Shown piece by piece: positions 20,334-41,314 of a stretch of DNA of 64,000 nt. How positions within the stretch are numbered: position 1 is the stretch's first letter; each line of letters starts with the position of its first letter. This DNA comes from Cyclobacteriaceae bacterium. Its GTDB lineage: Bacteria > Bacteroidota > Bacteroidia > Cytophagales > Cyclobacteriaceae. The position numbers were made by a program, and so were the translations under genes. The stretch covers positions 2,001,125 to 2,065,124 of the forward strand of contig OZ245814.1 in assembly GCA_965228415.1 (NCBI GenBank), read 5' to 3'. The notes under the pieces were generated by a model. That model was not told the origin of the DNA. It worked only from the letters and a program-made list of their open reading frames with translations, and did no database searches.

Positions 20334-23300
20334 CTAGCGAATTGAGGCCTTCTCATCTTTGTCTTTCTTATTCTTTTCGTTAATGCCAAGTGATGGTTTA
20401 ATACCGCTCAAAAGGGATTTCCAAAGAAAGTTAAACAGGGATTTCTTTTTGTCCCTTTCAAAATAAATCTCTCCTACTCTCAAATTTTTGCCATTAGGGT
20501 TTTTATTGTTAATGACAAAAGTATTCGCTAAAAATGAAGCAAATCCACCTTTGTCACCGGTTTTCTTTTTAATCACCGTAATCTTCAAATCACTATATCT
20601 AAAGCGCATTTCACCAACGGCAAAATTATTATTTCCGTCAAATGAAAAATCCATCTTATCGTTCTGGCCGCTTTTTACAGAAACAAAGGCGACATTTTCC
20701 AACATCGGATTCACATCTCTTAAATCAAAGCGGTCGATGGTTCCCTGAAGTGTAAATTTGTTCTGCTTACCGGAAATATTGGAACTAAAATATGCCTGGA
20801 TTTTGCCTTTTCCCATCAACATGGCCCGGGCGTCAATGGTAAGCATGTCATTTCTTTTCCAGGCCGCCGGCGCGTTGGTAATATTTCTTACGTCGGCATT
20901 CACGTTGGTAAATTCGATTTTACCCGGTTTTTGTCCATCTTCCGTGAATTCTTCATAGGATACATAGCCATTTTTCAATTGCAACAGATCCAGCTTCAGG
21001 TAGCGGTCAAAATCTCTAATCCATTCCTGGGGCATAAGTGGCTTTTGATCTGTTGGAAATGGTAACCTTTTGTCTCTAAAATTCCGTGCCCTGAAATTAT
21101 TTATATTAACGATGCCTGCCTTCACCCAACCCCGCAAAATATAATTTTCAAAATCGAAGTTTTTAAATTCCACCAGCCGTGCATTAAATTCTACACGGTC
21201 TTTTTCATGACCCAGCTTATTGGCAAATTGAAACTTTCCGTATTTTGGTTTCAAAACGACGGAATCCATATATATTCTGGATTTTGCCAGACTGACACCA
21301 ATTTCATCGGCTTTCAACGTGTAGAGACTATCCGGTAAGCGATAGGTATAATCCTTAATCTTAAGATCAATATCATCAGCGTAAAACAGCCTGGAATCGA
21401 TCTTCCTTGATTTGTTATTCAAATTAAAATTTTTCACCTTTCCTGAAATCCGTTCCAGCAGCATGTCCTGACTTTCGGGATCTTTCACTTTTTTCAGCGA
21501 AAAGGTAGCACCGCTGAAATCAAGTTTTTGCACATTCAAAAATTTGAGGTTCTTGGACAGTAATTTGTCCAGGATATCCTTCGGATCGATCCGCTTACCT
21601 CCCTGAACAGGTTCTTTATAGCTGATTAACCCGATATTCGGGTTTTTGATATAGGCATTTCTTACCGTGTAATTCTTTTGCAAATAAGCCTTTTCCAGGT
21701 CGATACCAGTCAGGTCAATTTTTGGAAAACTTACATCAAACAGGAGTTTACTTTTCTGATTTCTCAGCAGTTGGTTATAATTTTTGTTTCTTCTGGGTTT
21801 TAGTCTGAAGTCTTCTGCGGATAAAAGCTTTTTGCCCGATGATACGTTGATGTTGCTGGCACTTATATGATGTATACTATCCGGCAACCGCATTTGATAA
21901 TTAGTCATATCCAGCTCAATGTTATCTGCATAAAGAATTTTCCGGCTGTTGTTCAAGATGACAGAATCAAGCAAAAAATCATTCAGCCTCATGGAAAAAT
22001 CGGTAGTAGAGAAGATTTGTTTCTTCCTTCCCAGTTGGTTTCCCAAAGCCACCCGGCCATTGGTCAACTTAACATCCTTGATCTTGACACCCTTCAGAAC
22101 AGCCGGCATTCGGGCCTGTCGGGAGCGGCTCATAAACTTGTTTTTCCCCTTAATTTCTACCTGGTTAATAATTTCAAAGGTCGGTTTGCTCAGTTCAATA
22201 TCATTAATCTCCAGCAGGTTGTTGTAATATAACTTGTTGATATCCACGCCCTGCATGACAATGGTAGGCACCGACACGTTGTAAAATGCTGGCAAATCCA
22301 CCGTATCCAGGCGGTTGCTTTTCGGATGTAGCTTAGAAGATTTTAAATATATCTCCGATTTGGCCGTAGAAATTCCTACTTCCCGGGTCCTCAACACATG
22401 AATACTGTCGGGAAGGTTAATGAGATAATTATTCAACTTCACTTCAATATCATCGGAATAAAAAATCCGGTTTTTGTTGCGGCTGGACTGGTTATTTAAC
22501 ACAAAGTTGGTGGCCTCAATAGAGACATTATTTTGCGATAAAGTATTGGCGTCTTGCGATGTGTTGGTGACAACATTAAAAAACCCGTTGTTTAAACGCA
22601 TTTTTGTTATATTGATTGATTTGAGGTAATCTTCAAACAAAGCGTACAAATCATCTTTTTTGAATGTTGAGTTCCTCCTTTGCCGGGTGATGTGGGTGTA
22701 GCGATTGAGTACAACATTCGGTTTGTCGATGGTAATAGTCTTAATATTTAAAAAATGCCTGAAATAGGCCTTTCGTATATCAGCCCCATTGATAAGCAAA
22801 GATGGAATATCGATGTTGTACAGGACAGATCGATTTGACCTTCTAAGAAACATATCTATGTTCTTGACCGGGATAGGAAATAGTTTTATACCGTTGGCAT
22901 AGATCTGTGACTTGATGGTTGATATTCCTACTTTCCTGGCTTTTAATATGTGCAAATCATCTGACAACTTCATCAGATAACGCTCTAAAGTAAAGGTGAT
23001 GTTATCGGCAAAGAAAATCCGGTTGGACGTATATTGACCTACGGAATCAAGCTTGAAATTGTCCAGTGAAAAAGCAATTCTACCCGCCCTTATCGTATCC
23101 TTTTTGGCTCCTTTATAATTCGCATATTCCAGGCTTCCGTCTCTCAGCTGTATCTGGCTGACTGCGATGGATTTCACATAGTTCTTAATCAGCCGGTACA
23201 GTGACGCTTCGTCAAGCTGGTTGTGGCTGACCCTCGGCTTGCTATAATCAGAGATTTTTACAATCGGGTTTTCAACCAATAATTTTCGAAATTCAAGATC

Positions 23301-24761
23301 CCGGTAGTTGTATACCTTTTTAAAATCAACCCCCTCAAGGTCCAGTTGCGGAACAGACAAATTATACAATTCATATCCATTTCTCCTTGCCAGGGCCTCA
23401 TTCCCTTGTTTTGGCTGCAAGGAAACCGTATTGGCAATCGCTGATCTACTGAGCGTTGAGAACTCAATTTTTGCCGCTTTTAATATATGGAGACTGTCCG
23501 CGAGATCCATGGTATATTCACCGATATCTACAGTCAAATCATCCGCATAGAATATTTTTTCCTCGTTTCGATAAGATGATGAATCCACGAGAAACTGGCT
23601 GATCGCCACCGATACATCATTGGCCAGAATATGGGGCCTGTTGTTATCTATTTCCTGGGTGATGGCAAATTTACCATTGACGATTTCAAACGAGTCCACG
23701 TGAATCTTGTCAAGATAGGCGGAGCTTAGCGAGTACAAATTTCTGGAAATGGAATCGCGGTCCATTTTTGTGAATTTCTTTCTGGTTATAAACCTGATCT
23801 CGGGTTCATTCAGGTTTACATAGTCAATATCAAAAACACCATCAAAATAGGCCTGGTAAATATCTGCGCCGCTGATTTCTATCTCCGGAATGTAGATATC
23901 GTAAAACTCTTCATTATCATCATTCTTGATACTATCCGGCGCCATGCTTGGCAGTAACCACAATTTCTTCCCGCTAATGGTAGAGGTGGCAGTAGAAACA
24001 TTGACTTCCTCAGCCTCCAGCACATGCACACCATCACTTAATTTTAACCTGTAGTCCTCAATGTCAAGGTTGATGTGATCGGCAAACAGCAGCCGGCTGC
24101 TATCTTGCGTGAAAGTGGAATCAATGCGAAATCCATTTAAGGTAATGAAGATATCGCCGGCAGTAGATAATGCGGTCTTGCCATACTGGCTGTTTTCCAA
24201 AATAATTGAGCCGTTGGAAAACTTCAATTCCTTGATTAATAGCGCCTTAATATATTTTCTAAGAAAGGGATAAACATCGTTATATATCTTGTTGTGCCTG
24301 TTGGTCCCGTCAAACTTGTTGGCGCCTAAAAAATCCACTTTAGGATCTGTAATTTCTACGTTGGCAATTTCTAAAACCTTGTCGTAATAAAGTTTCAATA
24401 GCCCTATCCCGCCTACCTTAATTTCCGGAAACTCGATGTTATAGTAGCTTTTGACAGTGTCGGCCTTAACCTTATCCAGGAATGCATCGTTGGGTTGGAC
24501 GCTTAAATCCTTAATTTTGAAACCCAGACCCGCCAGGTTGATATGCACTTTCTCAAATTCGATTTTGTACACCCCGCCGCTCTCGGCCATTAGTTTTCGC
24601 TGTAAAACCTGCCGGATGAAAGGATCGGAAAAATAAAACAGCAGTACCTGGAATATCACTAATATACCAAGGATTGATAATGATACTCTCAAAAACCTGC
24701 GTCTGGTCCTTCCAGGCCTTTTGGCTTTTTTTTGTTTAATATTTGCCTTTTTGTTACTCAA
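20334..24761 (-). CDS. AsmA/TamB-family giant envelope protein (1475 aa)
   Basis: N-terminal basic stretch plus a single TM anchor; long beta-rich body with more than five internal ~150-aa repeats (...LHILKARKVGISTIKSQIYANGIKL..., ...IHVLRTREVGISTAKSEIYLKSSKL...) typical of AsmA-like/TamB proteins. Confidence 0.5.
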   Translation of the reverse strand: MSNKKANIKQKKAKRPGRTRRRFLRVSLSILGILVIFQVLLFYFSDPFIRQVLQRKLMAESGGVYKIEFEKVHINLAGLGFKIKDLSVQPNDAFLDKVKADTVKSYYNIEFPEIKVGGIGLLKLYYDKVLEIANVEITDPKVDFLGANKFDGTNRHNKIYNDVYPFLRKYIKALLIKELKFSNGSIILENSQYGKTALSTAGDIFITLNGFRIDSTFTQDSSRLLFADHINLDIEDYRLKLSDGVHVLEAEEVNVSTATSTISGKKLWLLPSMAPDSIKNDDNEEFYDIYIPEIEISGADIYQAYFDGVFDIDYVNLNEPEIRFITRKKFTKMDRDSISRNLYSLSSAYLDKIHVDSFEIVNGKFAITQEIDNNRPHILANDVSVAISQFLVDSSSYRNEEKIFYADDLTVDIGEYTMDLADSLHILKAAKIEFSTLSRSAIANTVSLQPKQGNEALARRNGYELYNLSVPQLDLEGVDFKKVYNYRDLEFRKLLVENPIVKISDYSKPRVSHNQLDEASLYRLIKNYVKSIAVSQIQLRDGSLEYANYKGAKKDTIRAGRIAFSLDNFKLDSVGQYTSNRIFFADNITFTLERYLMKLSDDLHILKARKVGISTIKSQIYANGIKLFPIPVKNIDMFLRRSNRSVLYNIDIPSLLINGADIRKAYFRHFLNIKTITIDKPNVVLNRYTHITRQRRNSTFKKDDLYALFEDYLKSINITKMRLNNGFFNVVTNTSQDANTLSQNNVSIEATNFVLNNQSSRNKNRIFYSDDIEVKLNNYLINLPDSIHVLRTREVGISTAKSEIYLKSSKLHPKSNRLDTVDLPAFYNVSVPTIVMQGVDINKLYYNNLLEINDIELSKPTFEIINQVEIKGKNKFMSRSRQARMPAVLKGVKIKDVKLTNGRVALGNQLGRKKQIFSTTDFSMRLNDFLLDSVILNNSRKILYADNIELDMTNYQMRLPDSIHHISASNINVSSGKKLLSAEDFRLKPRRNKNYNQLLRNQKSKLLFDVSFPKIDLTGIDLEKAYLQKNYTVRNAYIKNPNIGLISYKEPVQGGKRIDPKDILDKLLSKNLKFLNVQKLDFSGATFSLKKVKDPESQDMLLERISGKVKNFNLNNKSRKIDSRLFYADDIDLKIKDYTYRLPDSLYTLKADEIGVSLAKSRIYMDSVVLKPKYGKFQFANKLGHEKDRVEFNARLVEFKNFDFENYILRGWVKAGIVNINNFRARNFRDKRLPFPTDQKPLMPQEWIRDFDRYLKLDLLQLKNGYVSYEEFTEDGQKPGKIEFTNVNADVRNITNAPAAWKRNDMLTIDARAMLMGKGKIQAYFSSNISGKQNKFTLQGTIDRFDLRDVNPMLENVAFVSVKSGQNDKMDFSFDGNNNFAVGEMRFRYSDLKITVIKKKTGDKGGFASFLANTFVINNKNPNGKNLRVGEIYFERDKKKSLFNFLWKSLLSGIKPSLGINEKNKKDKDEKASIR

Positions 24762-27106: not shown

Positions 27107-27814
27107 TTAGTATCTCATGTCAGGAAAACCAACCGGATCCGCCCACAATCTGTTAAACTCTTTCTGATAGCTTTTGACCACCGCCGCATCCTGCGTCACC
27201 ATTAAATTCTCATGGTTATTCTCGGCAGCGCTTCTCGTCCAGTTGTAACTCCCCGTAAGTACGGAAATACCATCAATAACTGCAAATTTATGGTGCATAT
27301 GATGGGAGGTGTCATCGGTTTTTATATGGATACCCGCTTTTAACATTGTTTCGATATCGGAACCCAGATCGTAAATTTTGTCGTTGTCGGTAATGATCCT
27401 AACGGCAATCCCTCTGCGGTGGCAATCAATAATGGCCCTGGTAATCCTGTCATCGCTAATCGTAAACACACATAGGTTGATCGTTTTTATGGCCTGGTTT
27501 AGCGCTGTTAATATAGCTTCCAAACAGGCACTTCCCGGAGAAAAGTAAACCTGGCTAACACCATGTACCGACTTTTTAGGTAATAGAATTTTATTGGCCG
27601 TCTCCAACCAATCGATGATTTTTAAAATTCCATGCTCATGGGCATGGTTCCGGGCCAGTTCAAAAATTTTATGCCTCAGCAGGTCGAGTGTGCGTTTATC
27701 CTGACGGTAGTCTTCTATTTTTTGTTTGAGCGCTCGCTTTTCCAGCCTCGAAAAATTGCCGTCCTCAATAGTATCGCGAAACGACTGAGTAATCTCTTCC
27801 ATTGGTTCAGACAT
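27107..27814 (-). CDS. PLD-family single-HKD (Nuc-like) nuclease/phosphodiesterase with ~100-aa N-terminal helical extension
   Basis: HxK(x)4D(x)6GSxN motif HHKFAVIDGISVLTGSYNWT, preceded by the Nuc-like core VYFSPGSA...ITDNDK. A single HKD copy implies a homodimeric active site. Confidence 0.75.
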   Translation of the reverse strand: MSEPMEEITQSFRDTIEDGNFSRLEKRALKQKIEDYRQDKRTLDLLRHKIFELARNHAHEHGILKIIDWLETANKILLPKKSVHGVSQVYFSPGSACLEAILTALNQAIKTINLCVFTISDDRITRAIIDCHRRGIAVRIITDNDKIYDLGSDIETMLKAGIHIKTDDTSHHMHHKFAVIDGISVLTGSYNWTRSAAENNHENLMVTQDAAVVKSYQKEFNRLWADPVGFPDMRY

Positions 27815-27838: not shown

Positions 27839-28618
27839 CTATTTTAATTTCTTTTTTATCTCTCTGATTTCATCCTCAATTTTCAGAACCCTTGCCTCCA
27901 CGGCGGAGGGTGGGTTTAGGTAGATACTATAAACCCCGTAAACCTGCCATAACTCCAGGATCTCATCAGTTTTCAGGTAAATGGTAGAATAGTTGGGATC
28001 ATCCGCAGAAAATTCGATCTGGTCGCCGATATCCGTTATTCTTCGCGTAGTAATATTGTCTTTGGTCACCACCACGAATACCTTACCCTTCCTGATATTC
28101 CTGGCTGTTAATGTTTCGATTTGATAACCCAGCAAAATGTCTCCATGATGCAGCCCATTGTGATTATATTCCATCTCACTGCCATTCAACTGAAAAGCCC
28201 TTGACTTTTCCTTGCGACTGATGGGCAGGTAAATTTTTTCCAGCCTGGAAATAAAATCCTTATTCTGATAATTTACAATGTACTCCAGGTATTTGTCTAC
28301 CAAAACCAGCGATATGCCACCTTCCGGCATGGCACTTGTCTTTTTTCCGGCATCAGGCAGGCCTACTCCATCCGCGTCACCGACAATAATATCGAATTTA
28401 TAAAGATCATTTACCGTCAATTCTTTATTTAATAGCAAATCAATGGAAAGTCCAAAATGATGAGCAATTTGAACAATTGTCTCGATCTTTGGTTCCGCTC
28501 TACCCTCCTCATATGCTCCAACACTAGGCCTGGCCAGGCTAAATAATTCAGCAAAACTAGCCTGACTAAGCTTTTTAACCGTTCTAATCTTTTTAATATT
28601 TTTTCCAATATATGACAT
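27839..28618 (-). CDS. XRE-family HTH + S24 peptidase (LexA/phage CI-like) repressor
   Basis: N-terminal HTH_XRE (IKKIRTVKKLSQASFAELFSLARPSVGAYEEG) and a C-terminal S24 LexA-like beta-domain. It is the first gene of the minus-strand operon. Confidence 0.8.
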   Translation of the reverse strand: MSYIGKNIKKIRTVKKLSQASFAELFSLARPSVGAYEEGRAEPKIETIVQIAHHFGLSIDLLLNKELTVNDLYKFDIIVGDADGVGLPDAGKKTSAMPEGGISLVLVDKYLEYIVNYQNKDFISRLEKIYLPISRKEKSRAFQLNGSEMEYNHNGLHHGDILLGYQIETLTARNIRKGKVFVVVTKDNITTRRITDIGDQIEFSADDPNYSTIYLKTDEILELWQVYGVYSIYLNPPSAVEARVLKIEDEIREIKKKLK

Positions 28619-28916: not shown

Positions 28917-29312
28917 ATGGATAACGATTTTAATAAAGTAAAAAACTACATCCTTGAACTCAATTATCTAATTACCTACGAAAACGAAAGCGACGGACTG
29001 ATTGCCATCGAAAAAGAAACGGAAGGAATCAAAAACCTGGTACTGGGTATTGCCGAACCCTTATTAATTGTCGAACAATTTATTCTTGAAATTAATAAAG
29101 ACAACCAGGATGTATACAAAAGTCTTTTACAAAAAAACCGGGATATCATTCACGGTGCCTTTGTACTGGACGAAAGCGGCAAAAAACTCATCTTCAGAAA
29201 CACCCATGAATTAGAAAATCTCAATTTGAATGAAATCGAAGGGACTTTAAATTCTTTGGGACTATTGCTCAGTGAATACTCTGAAGAGTTAATAAAATTT
29301 TCCAAAAATTAA
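28917..29312 (+). CDS. Small hypothetical protein, possibly YbjN/T3SS-chaperone-like
   Basis: 131 aa, acidic, with two alpha/beta half-repeats; it is the first gene of the psp-like cluster. The fold assignment is tentative. Confidence 0.35.
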   Translation: MDNDFNKVKNYILELNYLITYENESDGLIAIEKETEGIKNLVLGIAEPLLIVEQFILEINKDNQDVYKSLLQKNRDIIHGAFVLDESGKKLIFRNTHELENLNLNEIEGTLNSLGLLLSEYSEELIKFSKN

Positions 29313-29326: not shown

Positions 29327-30061
29327 ATGAACATTTTCAAGAGAATCTTTAAAATCGGACAGGCTGAGGCCCATTCCACGGTTGATAAACTGGAGGATCC
29401 CATTAAAATGACCGAGCAGGGAATCAGAGATATGAAGGCAGACCTGGAGAAAAGCCTGAAAGCTTTGGCGGAGGTAAAATCCCTCGCTATAAGAGCCCGG
29501 GATGATGCAGAAAGTAATAAAAACAAAGCAAAAGATTATGAAAACAAGGCCATGCTACTTTTAAAGAGAGCACAGTCTGGTGATATGGATATGTCGGAAG
29601 CCGACCGGTTAGCCACCGAAGCCCTGGTAAAAAAAGAGGAGTGTCTGCAGCAAACCAGCAGGGCCAATGCACAGCAACACAAATTTGAGGAAAATGTAGC
29701 CGCACTCAATGCCAATATCAAGACCATACGCGGAAATATCAGCAAGTGGGAAAATGAATTAAAAACCCTGAAAGCCAGGGTAAAAGTGAGCTCGGCCACC
29801 AAGACTTTAAATAAGCAATTAGCTCAAATTGATTCCTCCAGCACTGTATCAATGCTGGAAAAAATGAAGGATAAAGTGGCCAGGGAGGAAGCAATCGCGG
29901 AATCTTACGGTGAGATTGCTCAGGAAAGCAGATCTGTAGATGAGGAAATTGACAAGGCACTGGCCGGAGCCGGCCATGACCGTGCTGTGGAAGATCTAGG
30001 AGCACTCAAAAAGAAATTAGGAATTATCAAAAAAGACGATGAGGGAGCAGAAGGGGAATAA
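29327..30061 (+). CDS. PspA/IM30 (Vipp1/LiaH, ESCRT-III-like) family protein
   Basis: Canonical PspA N-terminus (MNIFKRIFKIGQAEAHSTVDKLEDPIKMTEQGIRDMKADL) and coiled-coil throughout, 244 aa. Confidence 0.85.
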   Translation: MNIFKRIFKIGQAEAHSTVDKLEDPIKMTEQGIRDMKADLEKSLKALAEVKSLAIRARDDAESNKNKAKDYENKAMLLLKRAQSGDMDMSEADRLATEALVKKEECLQQTSRANAQQHKFEENVAALNANIKTIRGNISKWENELKTLKARVKVSSATKTLNKQLAQIDSSSTVSMLEKMKDKVAREEAIAESYGEIAQESRSVDEEIDKALAGAGHDRAVEDLGALKKKLGIIKKDDEGAEGE

Positions 30062-30221: not shown

Positions 30222-30875
30222 ATGACAGAACTTTTTGATGCAGCGATTTCATTGCCCAATATTATCCCAACAGCCTTGCTGGGCCTGGTATTGCTATACT
30301 GGATAACAGTTGTGTTGGGTGCATTGGATTTTGATTTTTTGGATTTTGACCTGGATACGGAAATCGAGGGTGAATTAGAGGTGAGTGCAGACGCAGGCGG
30401 TGAGGGTGATGTTTCCATATCCTGGCTCAATTCAATTCTCGTATTCTTTAATATTGGCAGAGTCCCCTTCATGCTGTTTTTAAGCACTTTAGCGTTGCCA
30501 TTGTGGGTACTCTCCGTAATGACCAACTATTACCTGGGCATCGAATCGTTCCTGGGCGGATTACTGGTTTTTGTTCCGGTATTTTTTGTAAGCCTGTTCA
30601 TTGCCAAATTTCTGACCTTTCCGTTTGTTAAGCTATTTCAACATATGGAAAAAGAAGACGGAGAATCGAATTCGGCTGTCGGCAAGATTTGCGTTGTCTC
30701 TACCCTGATCACAGATAAAAAAATCGGTCAGGCGCAAGTAGCAACCAGCGGATCACCGATTTTACTGAATGTGGTAACGGGATCGGGCCATCAACTTAAA
30801 AGTGGCGACACCGCACTGGTCATCGAATTTTTAAAAGAGAGAAACCTGTACCTGGTAGAACCCTATAGCGGCTGA
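30222..30875 (+). CDS. NfeD/YqiJ-like membrane protein with C-terminal OB-fold
   Basis: Acidic DFDFLDFDLD segment, 3–4 TM helices, and a C-terminal NfeD beta-barrel (GKICVVSTLITDKKIGQAQV...GDTALVIEF). Confidence 0.6.
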   Translation: MTELFDAAISLPNIIPTALLGLVLLYWITVVLGALDFDFLDFDLDTEIEGELEVSADAGGEGDVSISWLNSILVFFNIGRVPFMLFLSTLALPLWVLSVMTNYYLGIESFLGGLLVFVPVFFVSLFIAKFLTFPFVKLFQHMEKEDGESNSAVGKICVVSTLITDKKIGQAQVATSGSPILLNVVTGSGHQLKSGDTALVIEFLKERNLYLVEPYSG

Positions 30876-30928: not shown

Positions 30929-33061
30929 ATGGAAACATCAATGCTTTGGACAATAGTCATATTAACAGCATTCTTTTTAATAGCAATTTTGATACTCATT
31001 GCCAGAATGTACCGCAAGGCGGTGCAGGGCGAAGCTCTGGTCAGAACAGGGGCCGGGGGCACTAAAATATCATTCAATGGTATACTATCTTTTCCGGTAA
31101 TTCACAAACTTGAAATTATGGATATCACCCTGAAAACCATGGTGGTCTCCAGAACGGGAAAAGACGGCTTAATTTGCAAAGACAACATGCGAGCCGATAT
31201 TCAAATCACCTTTTTTGTAAGGGTTAACAAAACCGAGGATGATGTAAAACACGTGGCACAATCAATAGGTTGTCATCGCGCTTCCGATACCCAACAATTG
31301 GAGTTACTCTTTGATGCCAAATTTTCAGAGGCATTGAAGACGGTGGGCAAGCAATTTGATTTTGTAGAACTTTATAACTCCAGGGCTGATTTCAGGGATA
31401 AAATCATTGAAGAAATAGGCACCAACCTTAACGGTTACATACTTGATGACTGTGCCATCGATTACCTGGAACAAACCCCGCTTGATTCCCTTAATGAAAG
31501 TAATATCCTGGATGCTGAGGGTATTAAAAAAATCATTGACATTACTTCAAGGGAGAAAATCAAAGCCAACTTAATTGAAAAAGAGAAAGAGAAAACGATT
31601 ACAAAACAAAATGTGGAAGCCCGTGAGACCATACTGGAACTGGAAAAACAGCTGGCGGAAACTGAGGAAAAACAACGCAAGGAAATTGCGATCACAAAAG
31701 CCCGCGAGGAAGCGGAGACGAAGACTATGCAGGAGCAGGAAAGGCTGAAGTCAGAAAAAGCCCGCATTGTTACGGATGAAGAGCTACAGGTAGCCGAGGA
31801 AAACAAAATGCGTGAAATCATTGTGGCATTGAAAAACAAGGAGAAAACAGAAGCCATAGAAAGTGAGCGAGTGGAGCAGGCGCGGTCTCTTGAAGCTACG
31901 GAAAGAGAAAGAATCGTGACCCTCGCACAAATAGAGAAGGAAAAGGCCGTGGAAGAGGAGCGCAAAAACATCCAGGATGTTATCCGTGAAAGGGTAGCCG
32001 TGGAAAAAGCTGTGGTGGAGGAAGAGGAGAAAATTAAAGACACAAAGGCATATGCCGAGGCTGACAGGTTGAAAAAAGTGGCCATTACCAACGCTGAAAA
32101 AGACGCTGAGGAAGCACTGGTGAAGGAAATCAAAAGTGCCGAAGCCAAGAAACACGCAGCTGAGCACCTCGCCAAGCAAAAACTGATTGATGCCGATGCC
32201 GAGCAGGCATCTGCTGGACAAAGGGCAGACGCCATTAAAACACTGGCGGAAGCCAAGGCCGCTGAAGCTGCTGCACTGGGCATGTCCGAAGCTCAGGTAA
32301 TGGAAGCCAAAGCCGATGCACGCATCAAACAGGGTGAGGCAGAAGCCAGCGTTATCGAGGACCAGGCCATAGCTGAAGCCAAAGGCATTCAGGCCAAATC
32401 GGAAGCTCAGGCGTTGGGGAATCAAAAAATAGGTTTGGCCGAGGCAACTGTCATTGAAGCCCGGGCCCAGGCCGAAGAAAAGAAAGGCCTTGCCGAAGCA
32501 ACGGTCATGTCTGAGAAGTTTTCAGTAGACGCCAAAGGCATTGAGCAAAAAGCCAATGCGATGAAGAAACTGGATGGTGTTGGCAAGGAGCATGAGGAAT
32601 TCAAGTTGAAGTTAGGAAAGGAAAAGGAAATAGAGCTGGCTTCTATCCATATCCAGAAAGACATCGCCGAAGCCCAGGCCAGGGTCATCGCGGAAGCCTT
32701 GAAGGCTGCCAACATAGATATTGTAGGCGGAGAAACCATGTTCTTTGATCAAATCATTAACGCAGTTACCAGGGGTAAGTCAATTGACAGAATGGTCGAC
32801 AACAGTCATGTGATCGGCAGTGTTAAAGATACTTTCTTTAATTCCGATACCGGTGGGAATTTCAAAACCAGGCTCTCACAATTTATAGATCAGTTTGGAA
32901 TTAACCCGGAAGATGTCAAAAACTTAAGCCTGTCGGCGCTGTTGCTGAAAATGATGCATAAAGCCAAGGACAAGGATACCAAAGGCATTATCAGTCAATT
33001 GACCAGCGTTTCCGAAGCGCTCGGAATCGCGGATAAATCTGCTGAAAGCATCGGCCTGTAG
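30929..33061 (+). CDS. Flotillin/SPFH (band-7, YqiK-like) protein with long Ala/Glu-rich coiled-coil
   Basis: N-terminal TM and an SPFH core (ALVRTGAGGTKISFNGILSFPVIHKLEIMDITL), then ~350 aa of EA-rich heptad repeats and a C-terminal flotillin tail. Confidence 0.8.
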   Translation: METSMLWTIVILTAFFLIAILILIARMYRKAVQGEALVRTGAGGTKISFNGILSFPVIHKLEIMDITLKTMVVSRTGKDGLICKDNMRADIQITFFVRVNKTEDDVKHVAQSIGCHRASDTQQLELLFDAKFSEALKTVGKQFDFVELYNSRADFRDKIIEEIGTNLNGYILDDCAIDYLEQTPLDSLNESNILDAEGIKKIIDITSREKIKANLIEKEKEKTITKQNVEARETILELEKQLAETEEKQRKEIAITKAREEAETKTMQEQERLKSEKARIVTDEELQVAEENKMREIIVALKNKEKTEAIESERVEQARSLEATERERIVTLAQIEKEKAVEEERKNIQDVIRERVAVEKAVVEEEEKIKDTKAYAEADRLKKVAITNAEKDAEEALVKEIKSAEAKKHAAEHLAKQKLIDADAEQASAGQRADAIKTLAEAKAAEAAALGMSEAQVMEAKADARIKQGEAEASVIEDQAIAEAKGIQAKSEAQALGNQKIGLAEATVIEARAQAEEKKGLAEATVMSEKFSVDAKGIEQKANAMKKLDGVGKEHEEFKLKLGKEKEIELASIHIQKDIAEAQARVIAEALKAANIDIVGGETMFFDQIINAVTRGKSIDRMVDNSHVIGSVKDTFFNSDTGGNFKTRLSQFIDQFGINPEDVKNLSLSALLLKMMHKAKDKDTKGIISQLTSVSEALGIADKSAESIGL

Positions 33062-33197: not shown

Positions 33198-33422
33198 ATG
33201 AATAGTTCAAACGAAAAACTTGCTTGTAAAATCAGTGGTATGATCATCAGCTTTTTCATTGCTGGTATGATGATCATTCTGCTAACCAATGCAGATCACC
33301 ATAGAATATCTACCTGGATCGCTTTTTTCATAGCCATGCTGGGTTTGGTGGCACTCAATATCATTTACCTGAATTTGATAGAAAATGTATTTAGAAAGCT
33401 TAACCATAAAAATAAATTATAA
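33198..33422 (+). CDS. Small 2-TM membrane protein (74 aa)
   Basis: Two clear hydrophobic helices; sits in the gap between flotillin and the permease on the same strand. No homology is recognised. Confidence 0.35.
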   Translation: MNSSNEKLACKISGMIISFFIAGMMIILLTNADHHRISTWIAFFIAMLGLVALNIIYLNLIENVFRKLNHKNKL

Positions 33423-33426
33423 ACAG

Positions 33427-33699
33427 ATGAAATACTGGCCAAGAGAGCCGATAAAGGATAGTCTGAAAACACGAAAACAATCAACTGACAAGTCTGAAAA
33501 GAATTTTGAAGATGAATTACACAGATTCGAGATTACAGGGCTGAAAAAGAAAATCAAAAAGCTAAAACAACGCAATCTCGAAAAATTTAAAGAAAGAGCC
33601 GCTTATAAGAAACAGGTTGTACAAAAACAAATTACGCTGGTATTGCTGATTTTTACATTGATCTGGTTCTTTTTGTTGATGATGATTTGGCTTAATTAG
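33427..33699 (+). CDS. Small tail-anchored coiled-coil protein (~90 aa)
   Basis: ATG at 33427 lies 5 bp after the preceding stop. Lys/Glu-rich helix followed by a C-terminal TM (ITLVLLIFTLIWFFLLMMIWL). Confidence 0.35.
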   Translation: MKYWPREPIKDSLKTRKQSTDKSEKNFEDELHRFEITGLKKKIKKLKQRNLEKFKERAAYKKQVVQKQITLVLLIFTLIWFFLLMMIWLN

Positions 33700-33756: not shown

Positions 33757-35235
33757 ATGATAAAACATTTAATAAGTCATCAGTGGAAGCAATCTTCCAG
33801 ATCTAAAAAATTTGCCGAAAGCACCGGGATTAAAATTGTATATTGGTTTTTTGTAGGCCTTATGCTTTTATATGTCCTGGCGGCTGGATTTTTTATCGAT
33901 AAAATTCTGGAGGCATCATTCCCTAATCAGGACCTTATAACCGTTTTTAATAGTTTCATTTTATATTATTTCACAGCGGATGTATTTATGCGGTTTTATC
34001 TTCAGGATGTGCCTATTTTATCGATCAGCCCCTATCTGCATTTACCCATAAAAAAGCGTAAAATGATTCATTTTATGCTCTCAAAGTCGCTGCTAAGCCT
34101 TTTTAATTACCTGCCACTCTTTGTATTTATCCCATTTGGGCTGAAGGTAATTCTTCCAGCATTGGGGGCGGGTTATGCAATTATCTGGCTGTTGGGGATG
34201 TATGGCTTAATTTTGACCAATAACTTCCTGGCAATTTATTTAAAGAGACAATTGGTAGGAAACTTTAAGGTGGTCATCAGCTTTATCGCCCTTATTATTA
34301 CCTCGGCCATTGTCGATTTAATGGGCTGGGTAGATTTTTCTGAACTATCATCCCTGCTTTTCACCGGCCTGGGATACAGTTCCGGATATCTGCTGGTTGT
34401 CGGGGGCCTATTACTAACTGCCTATTTGTCAAATTATCTTTTACTAAAGAAAAATAGTTACCTGGACGAAATTGACTACGGAAAAAAGAAAGACGGCTTC
34501 AAGGCCATCAACACCTCTTTTTTACAGCGTTATGGCAACATAGGATCCCTGATCGCCATGGAGTTAAAGCTGATCTTCAGGAATAAAAGGCCTAAATCGA
34601 TATTTTTCATGAGCATTGTGCTCTTGTTGTATGGTTTTTTATTTTATCCCAACGACTTCTATATGGAGGGATTTGGTATGCTCACGTTTGTAGGAGTCTT
34701 TATGACCGGCATATTCCTGAGCAATTACGGCCAGTTATTGTTAAGCTGGAATAGCAATTTCTTTGATAAGATCATCACCAGCCGCGTCAATATGCACGAG
34801 TATTTTGAGTCGAAATTCTGGCTGTTTTTTGTTACTTCCACCGCTGCCTTTATCCTTACTGTTCCATATTTATATTTTGGCTGGAAGGTATTGGCTATCA
34901 ATGCAGCCTGTTATTTATTTAATATTGGCGTCAATGCCTTTGTGATATTTTACTTCAGCATGCGAAACCCCAAGCGAATAGATCTGTCCAAAAGTGCTTC
35001 TTTCAACTACGAAGGTGTCACGGCTACACAGTTCATCTTAATCTTGCCTATTCTGCTATTCCCGGTTTTACTGGTATTGCCCTTCCAATATGTGGAAGTG
35101 CCATACCTGGGAATTTCCCTGCTGGCGGTTATGGGCATAGTGGGGCTGTTTTTGAAAAATACCTGGTTTAAACTGATTGAAAAAAGATACAGGACCAAAA
35201 AGCACGAACTTGCTACTGGTTTCAGACAAGTGTAA
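33757..35235 (+). CDS. Polytopic membrane protein (~12 TM), putative ABC-2-type permease partner
   Basis: Two 6-TM halves and no conserved catalytic motif; immediately followed by the ABC ATPase. Confidence 0.55.
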   Translation: MIKHLISHQWKQSSRSKKFAESTGIKIVYWFFVGLMLLYVLAAGFFIDKILEASFPNQDLITVFNSFILYYFTADVFMRFYLQDVPILSISPYLHLPIKKRKMIHFMLSKSLLSLFNYLPLFVFIPFGLKVILPALGAGYAIIWLLGMYGLILTNNFLAIYLKRQLVGNFKVVISFIALIITSAIVDLMGWVDFSELSSLLFTGLGYSSGYLLVVGGLLLTAYLSNYLLLKKNSYLDEIDYGKKKDGFKAINTSFLQRYGNIGSLIAMELKLIFRNKRPKSIFFMSIVLLLYGFLFYPNDFYMEGFGMLTFVGVFMTGIFLSNYGQLLLSWNSNFFDKIITSRVNMHEYFESKFWLFFVTSTAAFILTVPYLYFGWKVLAINAACYLFNIGVNAFVIFYFSMRNPKRIDLSKSASFNYEGVTATQFILILPILLFPVLLVLPFQYVEVPYLGISLLAVMGIVGLFLKNTWFKLIEKRYRTKKHELATGFRQV

Positions 35236-36033: not shown

Positions 36034-39000
36034 ATGACAGAAAAAAAAACAAATAACAAAAAGAAAAATCAAAATCCGGCTGCCGAATTGGAGGCGGGAA
36101 CTTATGAAATTTTAAGCAAAAGGCTGCAAAATAATGGCCTTCAGCTCAGGGAAAAGCTACACAGGCTCAACGAATCCAGAAAGGAAGTATTTGGATCAAT
36201 TGATACTGCGCTGATCACAACCGAAAGAATAAATACGGAGCACAACTGTATTCCCTGGGACATGGAACCGATCGGTAATCACTTTATCTTTGGCTACAAT
36301 GTCCATATCGGGCTGAAAGTGGAAATGCAACTCGCCGATGTGTTCAGTATTTATACTTTCAAAGATCACGGCTTTCACGCCGAAGGACTCGAATTGATCA
36401 CCGACAACGCCTTCATTGAAGATTTCAGAAAGTTATATAAGTATTATAAAAACACCCGGTTTGTAAAATTTGCACGGATTGAAAATCATTTGTTCATGAT
36501 TTTCCGGGTAGGAAAAGGCAGGGATGATATCAAGACATTTAAATGGTTAATAAACGGTTTGGAATTGGTCTATGTAGACAACAGGAGTGATCATGAATAT
36601 GTTTTTCCCAGCCAACACGAATTTAACTGGAAAAAAACCAACAGAGACTTCCACCGGGAAGGTGAATTTCCTCATATCTCTATTGAGGACAAGGTTTTTG
36701 TAGAAACGATTGGTGGTGACCTTACCATTAAAATAGAGGACAACACCGATGAGGGAAAAGGAATATATGCGGAAAAGGTGGAAAATATAGATCAAAGACT
36801 GGAAGACGCTGAGATTTATTATACCATTTTAGGAAATATTATTATTCTTAAAATCAGACCTTATCAGGAAAAAAACTTTCGCTATATCGTTTACAACGCA
36901 AAATTAAAGGAAGCCAGGAGAATCGACGCTTTAAAAGATGCCTGTGTATTGTTGCCGGATGATTATGGGATCATTTTTTCCAACGGCTATTACCTAAAGA
37001 CGGGAGAGTTTAAGCAATTCGACAACCAGTTGGATAACATGCATTTTGAAAGAAGAATTGCCTCGCCTAATGGCGAAGATTTTCTTTATGTCTTTTACAA
37101 TAAAGACTCCGGGGTTTATCTTTTATTTCCTTATAATATCATCGAGCAAAAAGTCAATACGCCGCTAACCTGTCACGGTTATTCGATCTTTGAAAACGGG
37201 GAGCTTATTATTTTGAATGCGGACAATGCAGCCAAAAAGCATCACGCTATACAAATATGGCAGACCCCTTATACCGGACCAAATTACCAGGTACAGGGCT
37301 CCAACAACTCCTATTTATATAAAATCGGCAACAAAGAAATCGTTAAGGCCATGGCTGAATGCCATGAAGTAATCAGCCTCATTGAAAAGGGAGACGACTA
37401 CGAAAACCTATATGCAGATTTAATAGGGATTACCGGCGATTTAAAAGACAGCTATCATTGGGTCGCCAGAGAAGAGGCGCATGATCTGGCTTCATCGTTG
37501 ACAGCCATACACGAGACCGCATCATCTGCTATCTCCGAATTTGAAAAAGTAAACGCGCTTAGAAAAAACACCAGAGAACAGGTGGCCTTGATATCAAAGG
37601 AAACCAAGGGCCTGATCAGCAAAATAAAACGTCAAAAAACGGACACGGTCAATGCCTACGTGTTGAACCTGCAAGACCTGCGAAATATCCGGGGTAAATT
37701 GATTTCTTTGAAAGAACTGCGGTACGTGGATCTTGAAGCCGTTGAAGGGTTTGAAAAAGAGGTGGAAATGGCTACTGCGAATACCTCCGGGGAATGTATT
37801 AAATTCTTGCTAAAAAAAGATGCACTGGCACCCTACGCGCAAAACGTGACCAGGATTGAGCGCGCAGTGCAACAGTTGGAAAAAATAGTGGAAGCCAACC
37901 AATTGGCAGAGGAGATTGCCAAAGTATCAGGGGAGTTGGAATTACTGATAGAAATTGTCACCAACCTGAAAATTGAAGATGCTACCGAAACTACCAGAAT
38001 TGTGGATAACATTTCGACCATCTATTCAGGTTTTAATAAAATAAAGGCAGATCTCAAAAATAAGAGAATATTGCTGTTGGGTGTCGAGGGTAAGGCGGAG
38101 TTCAATGCACAAATGAAGTTGGTAGACCAGGGGCTGATCAACTACCTGGACATCTGTGACACACCCGAAAAATGTGATGAATACCTTACCAGGTTAATGG
38201 TTCAGCTGGAGGAGCTGGAAGGTAAATTTTCCGAATTCGATGAATTTATAGATAAAATAAGCCTCAAAAGGGAAGAAATCTATAACGGGTTTGAAACCCG
38301 CAAAATTGCCCTGATCGAAGCGCAAACCAAACGGGCCAATACGTTGATGCAGGCCGCCGACAGAATTTTGGGTGCGGTCAAAAGCCGTGTGTCCAGGTTT
38401 GAATCAATTGATGAGATCAATGGCTATTACGCCGGGGATCTGATGGTAGAAAAAGCACGTGACATAATTACCTCACTGGTAGATTTGGGTGATACCGTGA
38501 AATCCGATGAGATCCAAAGCCGGCTGAAAGCAGTGCGCGAAGAAGCTATGAGGCAACTCAAAGACAAAAAAGAGCTGTTCCTTTCCGGAGAAAATATCAT
38601 TCAATTTGGTAATCATAAGTTTTCGGTCAATACGCAACCCCTTAGTCTTACCATTGTACCAAAAGGGGATGACATGTATTTTCACCTGACAGGCACAAAC
38701 TTTTTCGAAAAAATCAACGATGCCGGCTTTAATGATTGCAAAGCTGTCTGGGATCAGGCCCATGTATCTGAAAATCCACAGGTTTACAAAGGCGAATACC
38801 TGGCTTACAAAATCATAAAATCAAAGCCTTCGGGTTCAGGTGCAGCGCAAAATATAGCCGTTCTTACGCCCGAGCAGTTAATAAAGCTGGATCAAAAAAA
38901 ATTGAAGAATTACGTGCAGCAATTCATGGCCACAAGATATCATGAAGCCTATATAAAAGGGGTTCATGACCACGATGCCATCATGATATTAAATGTTTTA

Positions 39001-40965
39001 CTCAGGTTCTTAAAGTCGGGAGATTTACTGAGATATTCGTCAGAAGCCAGAGCCTGTGCTACCCTATACTGGAAAGTTTTCATTTCGGCAGAAAACAAAA
39101 ACCATCTTAACCATCAGTTAAAGGGTGTCGGCACCATCCTGAAAGTATTCCCTGAAACCAGAGAATTTGATGATATCAAACTGGTATTACAAAGAAAAAT
39201 TGAAGCCTTTGTAGGTGACACTGGTCTGTTTGACAGCACCGTTTGCCATCAGGCAGCTGAATATTTATTCCATGAGGTAAACCGGGGCGACAGGTTTATT
39301 ATCGATGTGGAATCGGCCAGACTCTATGAGGGGTTTTTTCAATACCTCGGCAAAAAAAAGGCAAAAAAAGAGTTCGACCGATCTATTGCACAAATTGCTG
39401 CCGACTCTTTGGCAAAATACAGATTAATTCAGCACTGGCTGCGGGCCTTTGTCCGGTCCGGCGATAAAATCACCGGTGATGAATACATCAACGAAACCGC
39501 TGCCATCATTTTAACGGACTCCTTTAAACCCAACCACGTAATTCATGTCGCCTTAAAAGAGACGCTGCAAGGTTTATTGGGTACACATAGCATGATTAAA
39601 GACAAGAAGTATGAGCTGGACTATAATGCCTTTACTCTGAAACTGGATAATTTTGAAAAGCAGGTAGTTCCTAAATACCACAAATTTCTGCAATTAAAGA
39701 AAGAGATTTCCACCACTTATAGCGAAGCGCTGAGGCTGGAGGAATTCAGACCAAGAATTTTATCATCATTCGTAAGAAATCAATTAATAGATAGCGTATA
39801 CCTTCCACTGATAGGTGCCAATCTGGCAAAACAGATTGGAACCGTCGGAGAAAACAAGAGAACCGACCTGATGGGCATGTTATTGCTAATTTCCCCACCT
39901 GGCTACGGCAAAACCACCCTCATGGAATATATTGCTAATCGCCTGGGGCTCATATTTATGAAAATAAACGGCCCCGCTATCGGCCATCAGGTTACCGCTG
40001 TTGATCCGGCGGAAGCTACAAATGCCGGTGCCAGAGAGGAGTTGGAAAAATTAAACCTTGCATTCGAGATGGGTGACAACGTGATGATTTACCTAGATGA
40101 CATTCAACATTGTAATCCGGAGTTTCTGCAAAAATTCATCTCACTCTGCGATGGTCAAAGAAAAATTGAGGGAATATATAAAGGCAAGAGTAAAACCTAC
40201 GATTTCAAGGGGAAAAAGGTTTGTGTGGTGATGGCCGGCAATCCCTATACCGAAAGTGGGGAGAAGTTTAGCATTCCCGATATGCTGGCTAACCGGGCAG
40301 ATATTTATAATCTGGGAGATATCATAGGTGATAACGCCAATGTATTTAAGTTGAGCTACCTGGAAAACAGCCTGACCTCTAATCCGGTCATGAATAAACT
40401 GGCGGGAAAAAGTCAGAAGGACCTGTATACCATGATCAAAATTGCTGAAACTGACAACAAGGAAGGGCTTGATTTTGACTACGCTTATGCCACTACTGAA
40501 ATAGATGAATATGTCAACGTTCTGAAAAAACTGCTGAAAGTACGCGATATCATATTAAAGGTCAACATGGCCTATATATACTCCGCTGCGCAAGCCGATG
40601 AATATCGAACTGAGCCACCTTTTAAACTACAGGGGTCTTACAGGGATATGAACAAAATTGCCGAAAAGGTAGTACCTGTGATGAATGAAAAAGAACTGGC
40701 AACCCTGATTGATACTCATTATGAAAATGAGGCACAAACACTGACGACCGGTGCGGAGGCAAATTTATTGAAGTACAAAGAGCTTCAAAAAGCCCTGAAC
40801 GGCCAGGATCAACAAAGGTGGGATGAGATCAAAAAGACCTTTGTCCGCAAACAGCAGCTAAGTGCACTTGGAGGGCAAAATCAGGTAGGACAGGTATTGT
40901 TGCAGATGGAGCATATTAACGACGGATTGAAAGGCATCATCAGTGCCTTGATACAAGATAAATAA
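36034..40965 (+). CDS. Giant (1643 aa) protein with single C-terminal MoxR/AAA_5-like AAA+ module and ~1280-aa coiled-coil-rich N-terminal extension
   Basis: Walker A variant LLLISPPGYGKTTL and Walker B VMIYLDDIQH. MoxR-type sensor/arginine block VVMAGNPYTESGEKFSIPDMLANRAD. The first ~430 aa are beta-rich; residues ~430–1280 are largely helical/coiled-coil. Confidence 0.7.
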   Translation: MTEKKTNNKKKNQNPAAELEAGTYEILSKRLQNNGLQLREKLHRLNESRKEVFGSIDTALITTERINTEHNCIPWDMEPIGNHFIFGYNVHIGLKVEMQLADVFSIYTFKDHGFHAEGLELITDNAFIEDFRKLYKYYKNTRFVKFARIENHLFMIFRVGKGRDDIKTFKWLINGLELVYVDNRSDHEYVFPSQHEFNWKKTNRDFHREGEFPHISIEDKVFVETIGGDLTIKIEDNTDEGKGIYAEKVENIDQRLEDAEIYYTILGNIIILKIRPYQEKNFRYIVYNAKLKEARRIDALKDACVLLPDDYGIIFSNGYYLKTGEFKQFDNQLDNMHFERRIASPNGEDFLYVFYNKDSGVYLLFPYNIIEQKVNTPLTCHGYSIFENGELIILNADNAAKKHHAIQIWQTPYTGPNYQVQGSNNSYLYKIGNKEIVKAMAECHEVISLIEKGDDYENLYADLIGITGDLKDSYHWVAREEAHDLASSLTAIHETASSAISEFEKVNALRKNTREQVALISKETKGLISKIKRQKTDTVNAYVLNLQDLRNIRGKLISLKELRYVDLEAVEGFEKEVEMATANTSGECIKFLLKKDALAPYAQNVTRIERAVQQLEKIVEANQLAEEIAKVSGELELLIEIVTNLKIEDATETTRIVDNISTIYSGFNKIKADLKNKRILLLGVEGKAEFNAQMKLVDQGLINYLDICDTPEKCDEYLTRLMVQLEELEGKFSEFDEFIDKISLKREEIYNGFETRKIALIEAQTKRANTLMQAADRILGAVKSRVSRFESIDEINGYYAGDLMVEKARDIITSLVDLGDTVKSDEIQSRLKAVREEAMRQLKDKKELFLSGENIIQFGNHKFSVNTQPLSLTIVPKGDDMYFHLTGTNFFEKINDAGFNDCKAVWDQAHVSENPQVYKGEYLAYKIIKSKPSGSGAAQNIAVLTPEQLIKLDQKKLKNYVQQFMATRYHEAYIKGVHDHDAIMILNVLLRFLKSGDLLRYSSEARACATLYWKVFISAENKNHLNHQLKGVGTILKVFPETREFDDIKLVLQRKIEAFVGDTGLFDSTVCHQAAEYLFHEVNRGDRFIIDVESARLYEGFFQYLGKKKAKKEFDRSIAQIAADSLAKYRLIQHWLRAFVRSGDKITGDEYINETAAIILTDSFKPNHVIHVALKETLQGLLGTHSMIKDKKYELDYNAFTLKLDNFEKQVVPKYHKFLQLKKEISTTYSEALRLEEFRPRILSSFVRNQLIDSVYLPLIGANLAKQIGTVGENKRTDLMGMLLLISPPGYGKTTLMEYIANRLGLIFMKINGPAIGHQVTAVDPAEATNAGAREELEKLNLAFEMGDNVMIYLDDIQHCNPEFLQKFISLCDGQRKIEGIYKGKSKTYDFKGKKVCVVMAGNPYTESGEKFSIPDMLANRADIYNLGDIIGDNANVFKLSYLENSLTSNPVMNKLAGKSQKDLYTMIKIAETDNKEGLDFDYAYATTEIDEYVNVLKKLLKVRDIILKVNMAYIYSAAQADEYRTEPPFKLQGSYRDMNKIAEKVVPVMNEKELATLIDTHYENEAQTLTTGAEANLLKYKELQKALNGQDQQRWDEIKKTFVRKQQLSALGGQNQVGQVLLQMEHINDGLKGIISALIQDK

Positions 40966-41056: not shown

Positions 41057-41314
41057 ATGGGATACCTGGGCTTTGGAATGCGCAAGGAAGTTTATGCACG
41101 AAAACCTAAATCCGCATTCAAAAAAATAAAAAAAATCTATGGCAAGCACCTGGATTTGCCAAAATCGCCTTTGAAATTAACACCTGACCAAACGAGTCCA
41201 TACCGGCAAAAAAAATCAATCCATCTGTTAGATACCGCCGCTTTTAAGGTATTTATCTTTCTGATTTTAGTTGGAAGTGTGTTACTTATCATGCACTTGT
41301 TAGGATCAATATAA
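41057..41314 (+). CDS. Small hypothetical protein with C-terminal TM (85 aa)
   Basis: Basic N-terminus and a C-terminal hydrophobic helix; lies just downstream of the giant gene. This is a weak call. Confidence 0.25.
   Translation: MGYLGFGMRKEVYARKPKSAFKKIKKIYGKHLDLPKSPLKLTPDQTSPYRQKKSIHLLDTAAFKVFIFLILVGSVLLIMHLLGSI

Follow-up and report, generated by a model that had tools for sequence, protein, structure and literature searches.

A giant AAA+ ATPase gene of the DUF3686 family closes a conserved flotillin-linked module with a proposed role in membrane stress in a Cyclobacteriaceae bacterium

Background

SPFH proteins form membrane-attached cages able to enclose the AAA+ protein FtsH, and PspA belongs to the ESCRT-III superfamily, whose polymers are recycled by another AAA+ protein, Vps4. 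Here we consider a giant gene of the DUF3686 family, which encodes a AAA+ protein and lies at positions 36034 to 40965 of a 64,000-nucleotide (nt) stretch of contig OZ245814.1 from a Cyclobacteriaceae bacterium (GCA_965228415.1); the whole of this stretch is referred to as the window, and all coordinates, unless another replicon is named, are positions in it. The only mention of this family that we found in the literature comes from comparative genomics (Ravi et al. 2024, mSystems, PMC11237479), where operons of a CesT/Tir-like chaperone and PspA are described as adding genes for a YqiJ/YuaF protein with three transmembrane (TM) segments, a band-7/flotillin protein and a “Betapropeller+Coiled-coil+AAA-ATPase”. 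A divergent “<-cHTH+Protease” is given in the supplementary table of that study, the Bacteroidetes exemplar being Dokdonia, and abbreviated flotillin-YqiJ(-AAA+) operons are reported to be more widespread.

The window locus shares with this description full-length collinear homology of the ATPase, the same domain order and the same operon. Indeed, the genes between 27839 and 40965 match the published Dokdonia order, the sole departure being an extra pair of genes, for a DUF5687 protein and an ABC-transporter ATPase, which the window genome and a relative with a 94%-identical ATPase, Fulvivirgaceae bacterium BMA12, carry before the ATPase gene. The window gene is an ordinary, intact orthologue of a large family that is catalogued and computationally described, yet functionally uncharacterised. 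An earlier reading of the gene, made from the sequence without database searches (hereafter the original prediction), held that it had no known bacterial counterpart, which does not agree with the fact that the family is named by NCBI and its architecture listed by Ravi et al. (2024; PMC11237479); it also passed over the most informative clue, the upstream linkage to flotillin/NfeD-type (and PspA) genes.

As in the FtsH-HflK/C complex, a AAA+ protein would here be functionally coupled, at the inner membrane, to a scaffold of the SPFH family and a partner of the NfeD type. This likeness is one of logic only: the window protein has neither the protease domain nor the TM anchor of FtsH and belongs to a different, not classical, AAA+ clade, and its partner, known from gene neighbourhood, is flotillin-type, not HflK/C-type. 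As with Vps4 and ESCRT-III, a AAA+ protein is encoded with a membrane-remodelling polymer protein, PspA, an arrangement that hints at recycling or remodelling; Vps4, however, is a small classical-clade AAA+ protein with an MIT domain, whereas the window protein is MoxR-like, giant and furnished with a beta-propeller, and PspA is absent from most DUF3686 loci. In contrast to dynein and midasin, which have six concatenated AAA+ modules per chain, the window protein has a single module and must oligomerise; the long-armed hexameric remodeller that had been proposed by analogy remains plausible.

The gene and its family

In agreement with the original prediction, the gene is an uninterrupted open reading frame (ORF) of 1643 amino acids (aa) that starts with ATG and runs from 36034 to 40965 on the + strand. 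Its homologues number at least 4868 at E ≤ 1e-5 in a word-indexed search; the 120 best of these are all 1626-1848 aa long with the same Pfam set, and the closest among the matches listed is the 94%-identical protein of BMA12. Residues 1-1200, searched alone without the AAA+ module by exhaustive HMMER, matched 1405 clusters at 50% identity (E ≤ 1e-3), 447 of them at E ≤ 1e-30, which span at least eight phyla and include full-length members down to 26% identity, so that this part of the protein is not an orphan. A tblastn scan of GTDB species genomes gave at least 585 loci, and the best 80 of these, in which residues ~1-1640 are covered at 46-75% identity, were used for neighbourhood comparison; they span Bacteroidota, Planctomycetota, Verrucomicrobiota, Desulfobacterota, Kiritimatiellota, Omnitrophota and Clostridia. 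Members from Gammaproteobacteria, Actinomycetota and Deinococcus occur among plasmid and chromid records.

An artefact of assembly or a frameshift fusing two genes, an eventuality raised in the original prediction, has nothing in its favour beyond the unusual length. It is excluded, and its probability is negligible, because the 1600-1900-aa architecture is collinear from residues ~15 to ~1640 in 80 independent genomes and down to 26% identity, and full length is kept at 46-94% identity in hundreds of genomes. The gene and the parts of its product are as follows.

36034 to 40965, + strand: giant DUF3686-family AAA+ protein gene, 1643 aa (Pfam DUF3686, DUF7902, AAA and AAA_5; full-length homologues)
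36208 to 37263, + strand: residues 59-410, divergent beta-propeller-like domain, the core of DUF3686 (residues 38-475), preceded by a long helix (residues 19-53)
37312 to 38553, + strand: residues ~427-840, mostly helical/coiled-coil, with DUF7902 (helices at 427-484 in the AlphaFold2 model; alpha-type hydrophobic periodicity, weak)
37819 to 38067, + strand: DUF7902, residues 596-678 (Pfam, E 1e-27)
38554 to 39783, + strand: residues ~841-1250, conserved middle region (invariant columns in the family alignment)
39877 to 40323, + strand: residues 1282-1430, AAA+ alpha/beta core (Walker A, Walker B, sensor-1, LANRAD)
40336 to 40962, + strand: residues ~1435-1643, helical lid and conserved helical C-terminal extension, e.g. 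YRTEPPFKLQGSYRDMNK (AlphaFold2 secondary structure; alignment conservation)

From N- to C-terminus, the protein is composed of a divergent beta-propeller, a long helical part with DUF7902, a conserved middle region, a single MoxR-like AAA+ module and a helical tail. Pfam DUF3686 (PF12458, “ATPase involved in DNA repair”) matches residues 38-475 over positions 2-448 of the 448-position profile, with an E-value of 1.7e-183 and 610.7 bits against a gathering cut-off of 25; together with DUF7902, this overturns the earlier statement that the first ~1280 aa hold no recognisable motif. The beta-rich character that had been assigned to the N-terminal ~430 aa is borne out by an AlphaFold2 (AF2) model of residues 1-485 built from a 47-sequence alignment (predicted local distance difference test, pLDDT, 85; predicted template-modelling score, pTM, 0.84), in which a disordered Lys/Asn-rich tip (1-18) and the helix 19-53 are followed by ~26 beta-strands at 59-410 and by helices from 427 onwards. 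The next ~850 aa had been described as coiled-coil/helical, and this holds for residues 441-840, which are of mostly alpha type in a crude hydrophobic-periodicity profile (a weak method), but not for what follows, a highly conserved beta-like stretch at 841-880 and then mixed or helical sequence to ~1250. Within residues 841-1250 no Pfam family was reported even at E 10, and the invariant alignment columns there include FGxHxFxVNTQPL...HLTGTNFF and RYxEGYxKGVHDHDA. A second AF2 model, of residues 1201-1643, comprises two linker helices, a five-stranded AAA+ core, a helical lid and an extra helical extension. No hydrophobic 19-mer exceeded the threshold for a TM helix anywhere along the 1643 aa, and the ATPase is therefore presumably a soluble, cytoplasmic protein.

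A conserved flotillin-linked module

The strongest indication of what the ATPase does comes from the genes that precede it. By tblastn against the 80 loci, the ATPase gene is directly preceded, on its own strand and at a median distance of 183 bp, by a gene for a homologue of the window's 710-aa flotillin-like protein in 59 of the 62 loci whose flank exceeds 2.5 kb, and a homologue of the 217-aa YqiJ-like gene comes immediately before this flotillin-like gene in 52 of the 60 testable loci; the linked loci extend over all seven groups named above. Moreover, the closer an ATPase is to that of the window, the closer its 710-aa partner tends to be to the window's flotillin-like protein (correlation of the two identities, r = 0.86, n = 63). 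The arrangement also reaches very divergent members: four of them, with 26-29% identity, have a gene for a ~210-aa protein, then one for a ~670-aa Band_7 protein, then the ATPase gene, with PspA nearby in two, and the same triad order was found in Pseudomonas fluorescens pQBR103 (“SPFH domain-containing protein”) and in a Streptomyces plasmid (“flotillin family protein”). All-against-all clustering of flank ORFs revealed no other neighbour recurring in the 80 loci, and none downstream. The conserved core, as predicted from these comparisons, is a YqiJ/NfeD-like gene, then an SPFH/flotillin-like gene, then the DUF3686 ATPase gene.

In the window this core is part of a longer array, which between 28917 and 40965 is encoded entirely on the + strand. 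The genes upstream of the ATPase gene are listed below.

27107 to 27814, - strand: PLD-like (HKD, PLDc_2) protein, adjoining the regulator (E 3.5e-32)
27839 to 28618, - strand: helix-turn-helix (HTH_3) and Peptidase_S24 protein, LexA/CI-like, candidate operon regulator (Pfam; divergent, its placement and direction shared by 19 Bacteroidota loci)
28917 to 29312, + strand: CesT/Tir-like chaperone, 131 aa (Pfam CesT_Tir_1, E 2e-53)
29327 to 30061, + strand: PspA/IM30, 244 aa, accessory, mainly Bacteroidota (Pfam PspA_IM30, E 1.9e-41)
30222 to 30875, + strand: YqiJ/YuaF (NfeD)-like 3-TM protein, 217 aa (three hydrophobic segments; Pfam matches of orthologues)
30929 to 33061, + strand: SPFH/flotillin-like protein, 710 aa, with an N-terminal TM segment, a divergent band-7 domain and a long coiled coil (orthologues and profile)
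33385 to 33699, + strand: small ORF
33757 to 35235, + strand: DUF5687 multi-TM protein (Pfam)
ending at 35974, + strand: ABC-transporter ATPase (Pfam)

The 710-aa and 217-aa proteins of the window have no direct Pfam or PDB match of their own, and their putative identities as SPFH/flotillin-like and YqiJ/NfeD-like rest on orthologues and a profile. For the former, which has a TM segment at residues 6-24 and a long Glu/Lys/Ala-rich stretch, 3 of 31 orthologues match Pfam Band_7/SPFH (best E 3.3e-13), the family profile matches the SPFH protein QmcA in PDB (E 5e-4), and NCBI names for the orthologues are “SPFH domain-containing” or “flotillin family”; for the latter, 12 of 27 orthologues match Pfam YqiJ_N and two match NfeD.

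The remaining neighbours are less constant. CesT, PspA and the divergent HTH-S24 regulator co-occur in 19-21 loci, nearly all in Bacteroidota genomes, with the CesT/Tir-like gene present in 19 loci and always alongside PspA, and a profile search placed PspA within 10 kb in 24 of 85 loci, to which the convergent PspA genes of loci L081 and L082, missed by the profile, must be added. Linkage of the ATPase to flotillin/NfeD-type genes is near-obligate, and that to PspA/CesT facultative. Overall, the ATPase gene stands at the end of a conserved module, probably one for membrane stress, to which Bacteroidota add CesT/Tir, PspA and a divergent regulator upstream; its minimal conserved form is thereby defined as YqiJ-like, flotillin-like and ATPase. 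The DUF5687 and ABC-ATPase pair was rejected as a functional partner, being absent from all 80 other loci: DUF5687 was found in none of them and the ABC ATPase was never adjacent. As the pair is common only to the window and BMA12, it would seem to have entered the operon recently and in this lineage alone.

These neighbours bear directly on the name of the family, whose members are usually called “DNA repair ATPase” by NCBI and sometimes “MoxR-like ATPase” by JGI. A role in DNA repair would accord with the former name and with the LexA-like neighbour in Bacteroidota, and weak RuvB_N/RuvB matches point the same way. Those matches, however, are confined to the P-loop, with 24.1 bits for RuvB_N against a cut-off of 27 and 23.4 for NCBIfam RuvB against 282, over 47 aligned residues; Pfam reported neither a DNA-binding domain nor a nuclease domain, the genes conserved alongside encode membrane proteins, no DNA-repair gene is conserved nearby, and we found no supporting literature. 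Since the flotillin-type neighbours are near-constant, the ATPase acts most likely on membrane scaffolds and not on DNA, and we judge a DNA-repair function highly improbable. The database name is probably misleading, and re-examination corrects it in so far as nothing supports “DNA repair”. The original prediction took as its refutation a full-length match to a family both annotated and understood in function, and only half of this holds: the annotation exists, the known function does not.

The AAA+ module and its nucleotide site

The lone AAA+ unit near the C-terminus, and the motifs quoted for it (SPPGYGKT, IYLDDIQH and VMAGNP...LANRAD), were all recovered. Pfam reports one module at residues 1283-1409 (AAA, 30.7 bits; AAA_5, 24.8 bits), and neither a maximum-sensitivity phmmer search with the module as query nor a search for other P-loop patterns found a second one in the rest of the protein. 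Walker A, SPPGYGKT, occupies residues 1287-1294 (nt 39892-39915), with S1287, K1293 and T1294; the residue numbers S1296 and K1301 given originally for mutants were ~8-9 too high. Walker B, VMIYLDDIQH, occupies residues 1350-1359 (VMIYLDD, nt 40081-40101) with the acidic pair D1355-D1356, and VMAGNP...LANRAD spans residues 1399-1423, with the sensor-1 residue N1403 and a conserved R1421 in LANRAD.

The Walker A motif had been called degenerate and the Walker B motif intact, and neither term fits. SPPGYGKT is identical in all 120 close homologues, in 79 of the 80 cross-phylum loci and in 68 of 70 distant representatives, and essentially all members have a Walker B of the form hhhDDIQH, with Asp in place of the usual AAA+ catalytic Glu (DD, not DE). 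The sensor-1 AGNP and the Arg of L.NR[AS]D are as conserved as the Walker motifs, and the complete signature SPPGYGKT / DDIQH / AGNP / L.NRAD is found in the window protein and in 68 of the 70 distant representatives. Moreover, conservation along the protein is highest in the AAA+ core, where the column mean is 0.88-0.94 as compared with 0.45-0.8 elsewhere. Judged by this conservation, the odd Walker A and B motifs are invariant family signatures and not decay, and the nucleotide site is under strong purifying selection; the retention of K1293/T1294, the acidic pair, N1403 and R1421 throughout the family argues for a functional nucleotide site.

The combination of an invariant S-type Walker A with a DD Walker B suggests a specialised, possibly slow, regulated nucleotide cycle, and may denote a slow, switch-like ATPase instead of a motor. 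DD Walker B motifs are present in switch-like AAA+ initiators such as DnaA, whose motif may resemble DDIQ. It is therefore necessary to consider that the protein might be a nucleotide-dependent switch or scaffold which, by slow ATP hydrolysis, would act as a timer or adaptor licensing the assembly of flotillin/NfeD (and PspA) with no mechanical remodelling. Besides the invariant DD and the replacement of the first Walker A glycine by Ser, this would be in line with the lack of an obvious aromatic pore-loop motif in the sequence between beta2 and alpha2. Strong constraint on the nucleotide pocket, including the sensor-1 Asn and the conserved Arg, suits catalysis equally, and we consider such a switch unlikely.

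By structure, the AAA+ fold is nearest to the NorQ hexamer, the top structural match, and to CbbQ, with sequence identity of 14-18%, and p97/Cdc48 rank beneath the MoxR proteins. By sequence, the stretch from the P-loop to beta2 resembles p97 D1, and the PDB matches obtained with either the protein or the family profile as query (p97, Cdc48, Rpt3 and RuvB) are to the P-loop region only, those to p97 and Cdc48 spanning residues 1281-1340; similarity to the classical-clade proteins Cdc48, FtsH and Vps4 does not extend over the whole AAA core. The segment from Walker B to the Arg finger, searched alone, had no significant PDB sequence match, nor did the first 1250 residues, except for a coiled-coil-bias match to TEX12. 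AAA_5 scored 24.8-27.7 bits against a cut-off of 22 and the generic AAA family higher, at 30.7-34.1 bits, while AAA_3, MoxR proper, was unreported even at E 10. As for the helix-2 insert and the pre-sensor-1 beta-hairpin of MoxR proteins, the AF2 model has a predicted beta-hairpin at ~1377-1390, between alpha3 and beta4, and its beta2-alpha2 segment, 1313-1330, is a loop and not a hairpin. A MoxR-like fold is supported; strict membership in the MoxR family is not, because the hallmark VWA partner is absent. In comparison with NorQ, CbbQ and RavA, to which its AAA+ core is structurally closest, the window protein has ~1280 extra N-terminal and ~200 extra C-terminal residues, a Ser-first Walker A and a DD Walker B.

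The nearest solved structures, NorQ and CbbQ, being MoxR-family activases, and AAA_5 being matched, the protein might alternatively be a canonical MoxR-type maturation chaperone that acts with a VWA/MIDAS protein encoded elsewhere to activate a membrane enzyme complex or to load it with a cofactor, flotillin serving only as a platform. However, no VWA gene was found among the neighbours in the window, as had been noted originally, and no further conserved neighbour in the 80 loci; the AAA_3 match is missing, the protein is five times the size of MoxR, and the half of the module from Walker B to the Arg finger is without detectable sequence similarity to any solved protein. We regard this alternative as improbable.

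A possible role on membrane scaffolds

The ATPase is very likely a functional partner of the flotillin/NfeD module. As to its action, we favour, on balance, a cytoplasmic ATPase, probably a hexamer, whose task would be the remodelling or assembly of membrane scaffolds made of flotillin/PspA; both partners carry TM segments and the ATPase has none. In the mechanism that we envisage, to which we would give somewhat less than an even chance, the AAA+ modules would assemble into a ring, as in the NorQ hexamer, and the propeller and helical arms would dock this ring onto the cytoplasmic side of a flotillin-NfeD assembly and onto PspA polymers where present. Nucleotide binding and hydrolysis would then drive assembly, disassembly or remodelling of the scaffold during membrane stress or repair, by a logic likened to that of FtsH in HflK/C cages and Vps4 on ESCRT-III. 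More tentatively still, the family could be the dedicated energy-consuming partner of bacterial flotillin, which would open, close or recycle scaffolds through its S-Walker-A/DD-Walker-B cycle.

Several observations weigh against the remodelling proposal. The link between the ATPase and flotillin rests on gene neighbourhood, and in three genomes (L022, L034 and L040), for which 7.7-10 kb upstream is available, neither a flotillin-like nor a YqiJ-like gene adjoins the ATPase gene; only some 30% of loci have PspA. With its DD Walker B the protein could be a very weak ATPase, and to our knowledge MoxR-type ATPases do not act as processive unfoldases or disassemblases in the manner of Vps4 or FtsH. 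Confidence in the AAA+ model is moderate (pLDDT 76), and the ~770 residues without a structural model (480-1250) could conceal an unrecognised activity. We found no experimental study of any DUF3686-family member in the literature, and neither Hinderhofer 2009 nor a 2026 paper on a Pseudomonas aeruginosa SPFH protein mentions an ATPase of this family.

The distribution of the module also brings to mind an anti-phage or abortive-infection system, in which the AAA+ protein would sense infection and the membrane proteins would act as effectors. Its spread across phyla is patchy, it is carried on megaplasmids and chromids, a CI/LexA-like regulator is adjacent, and in Pontibacter it adjoins genes for an integrase and for reverse transcriptases of group II introns. 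On the other hand, the best PADLOC-DB v2 matches, mad8 (E 1.2e-4) and IetA (E 1.3e-3), are to the P-loop only, there was no match among 50,697 phage records, and the flanks hold mostly housekeeping genes, with the module itself coupled to the envelope-stress gene pspA; a defence function seems quite improbable.

If the family is indeed the dedicated energy-consuming partner of bacterial flotillin, it would constitute a bacterial counterpart of Vps4-ESCRT-III or FtsH-HflK/C made from a different AAA+ clade, and flotillin microdomains in bacteria would pass through a dynamic cycle powered by ATP, so far undemonstrated. It would touch on two open questions, namely the mechanism of bacterial flotillins and their NfeD partners and the recycling of PspA polymers in bacteria without Vps4. 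A giant ATPase with at least 46% identity over 1600 residues across phyla, whose gene almost always comes straight after one for a flotillin-like protein, makes a strong candidate for the active component that is missing, and its odd Walker A and B motifs are conserved signatures worth mutating. While genes of the kind seen in the window had already been flagged by comparative genomics, the family remains a worthwhile experimental target.

Additional features of the locus and its relatives

In pQBR103, a 425-kb megaplasmid of P. fluorescens SBW25 (L086), the triad is joined, at 1-12190 of locus L086, to a longer same-strand gene array encoding PspA, a rhomboid protease, DUF2491, DUF350 and DUF1190 proteins and a glutathionylspermidine synthase; this array unites two PspA neighbourhood classes that are given separately by Ravi et al. 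(2024; PMC11237479). In Pontibacter sp. SGAir0037, the stretch directly 3′ of the ATPase gene (14250-19818 of locus L089) encodes a tyrosine integrase along with two reverse transcriptases of the group II intron type, which hints that the module borders mobile DNA in some genomes.

By eye, the HTH-S24 protein of the window retains the Ser of the S24 catalytic dyad (NGSEM), but Arg seems to occupy the position expected for the catalytic Lys (ITTRRI); if so, the protein may lack self-cleavage. The adjoining PLD-like gene accompanies the module in BMA12 and Pontibacter (L089), as well as at loci L004, L011, L015 and L074, and a PLD hydrolase is part of some proteobacterial versions of the operon (Ravi et al. 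2024, PMC11237479); an accessory gene for lipid modification would be in keeping with a role at the membrane.

A scan for sigma-70 promoters and terminators, whose model does not cover Bacteroidota promoters, gave counts near those of shuffled controls. The ABC-transporter ORF, as listed with a TTG start, overlaps the DUF5687 gene by 59 nt, and the BMA12 gene is annotated as shorter (233 aa), with no overlap. Directly 3′ of the ATPase gene there is an 85-aa ORF at 41057-41314 (+ strand), which BMA12 shares and of which L001 has a weakly conserved counterpart (49% identity). Past this ORF the window and BMA12 are no longer syntenic: the window has, on the - strand, genes for a class-V aminotransferase and for a lactate permease, and BMA12 has one for a 4435-aa Por_Secre_tail protein. 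Another long ORF, of 1475 aa and listed with a TTG start, is located upstream of the module at 20334-24761 on the - strand.

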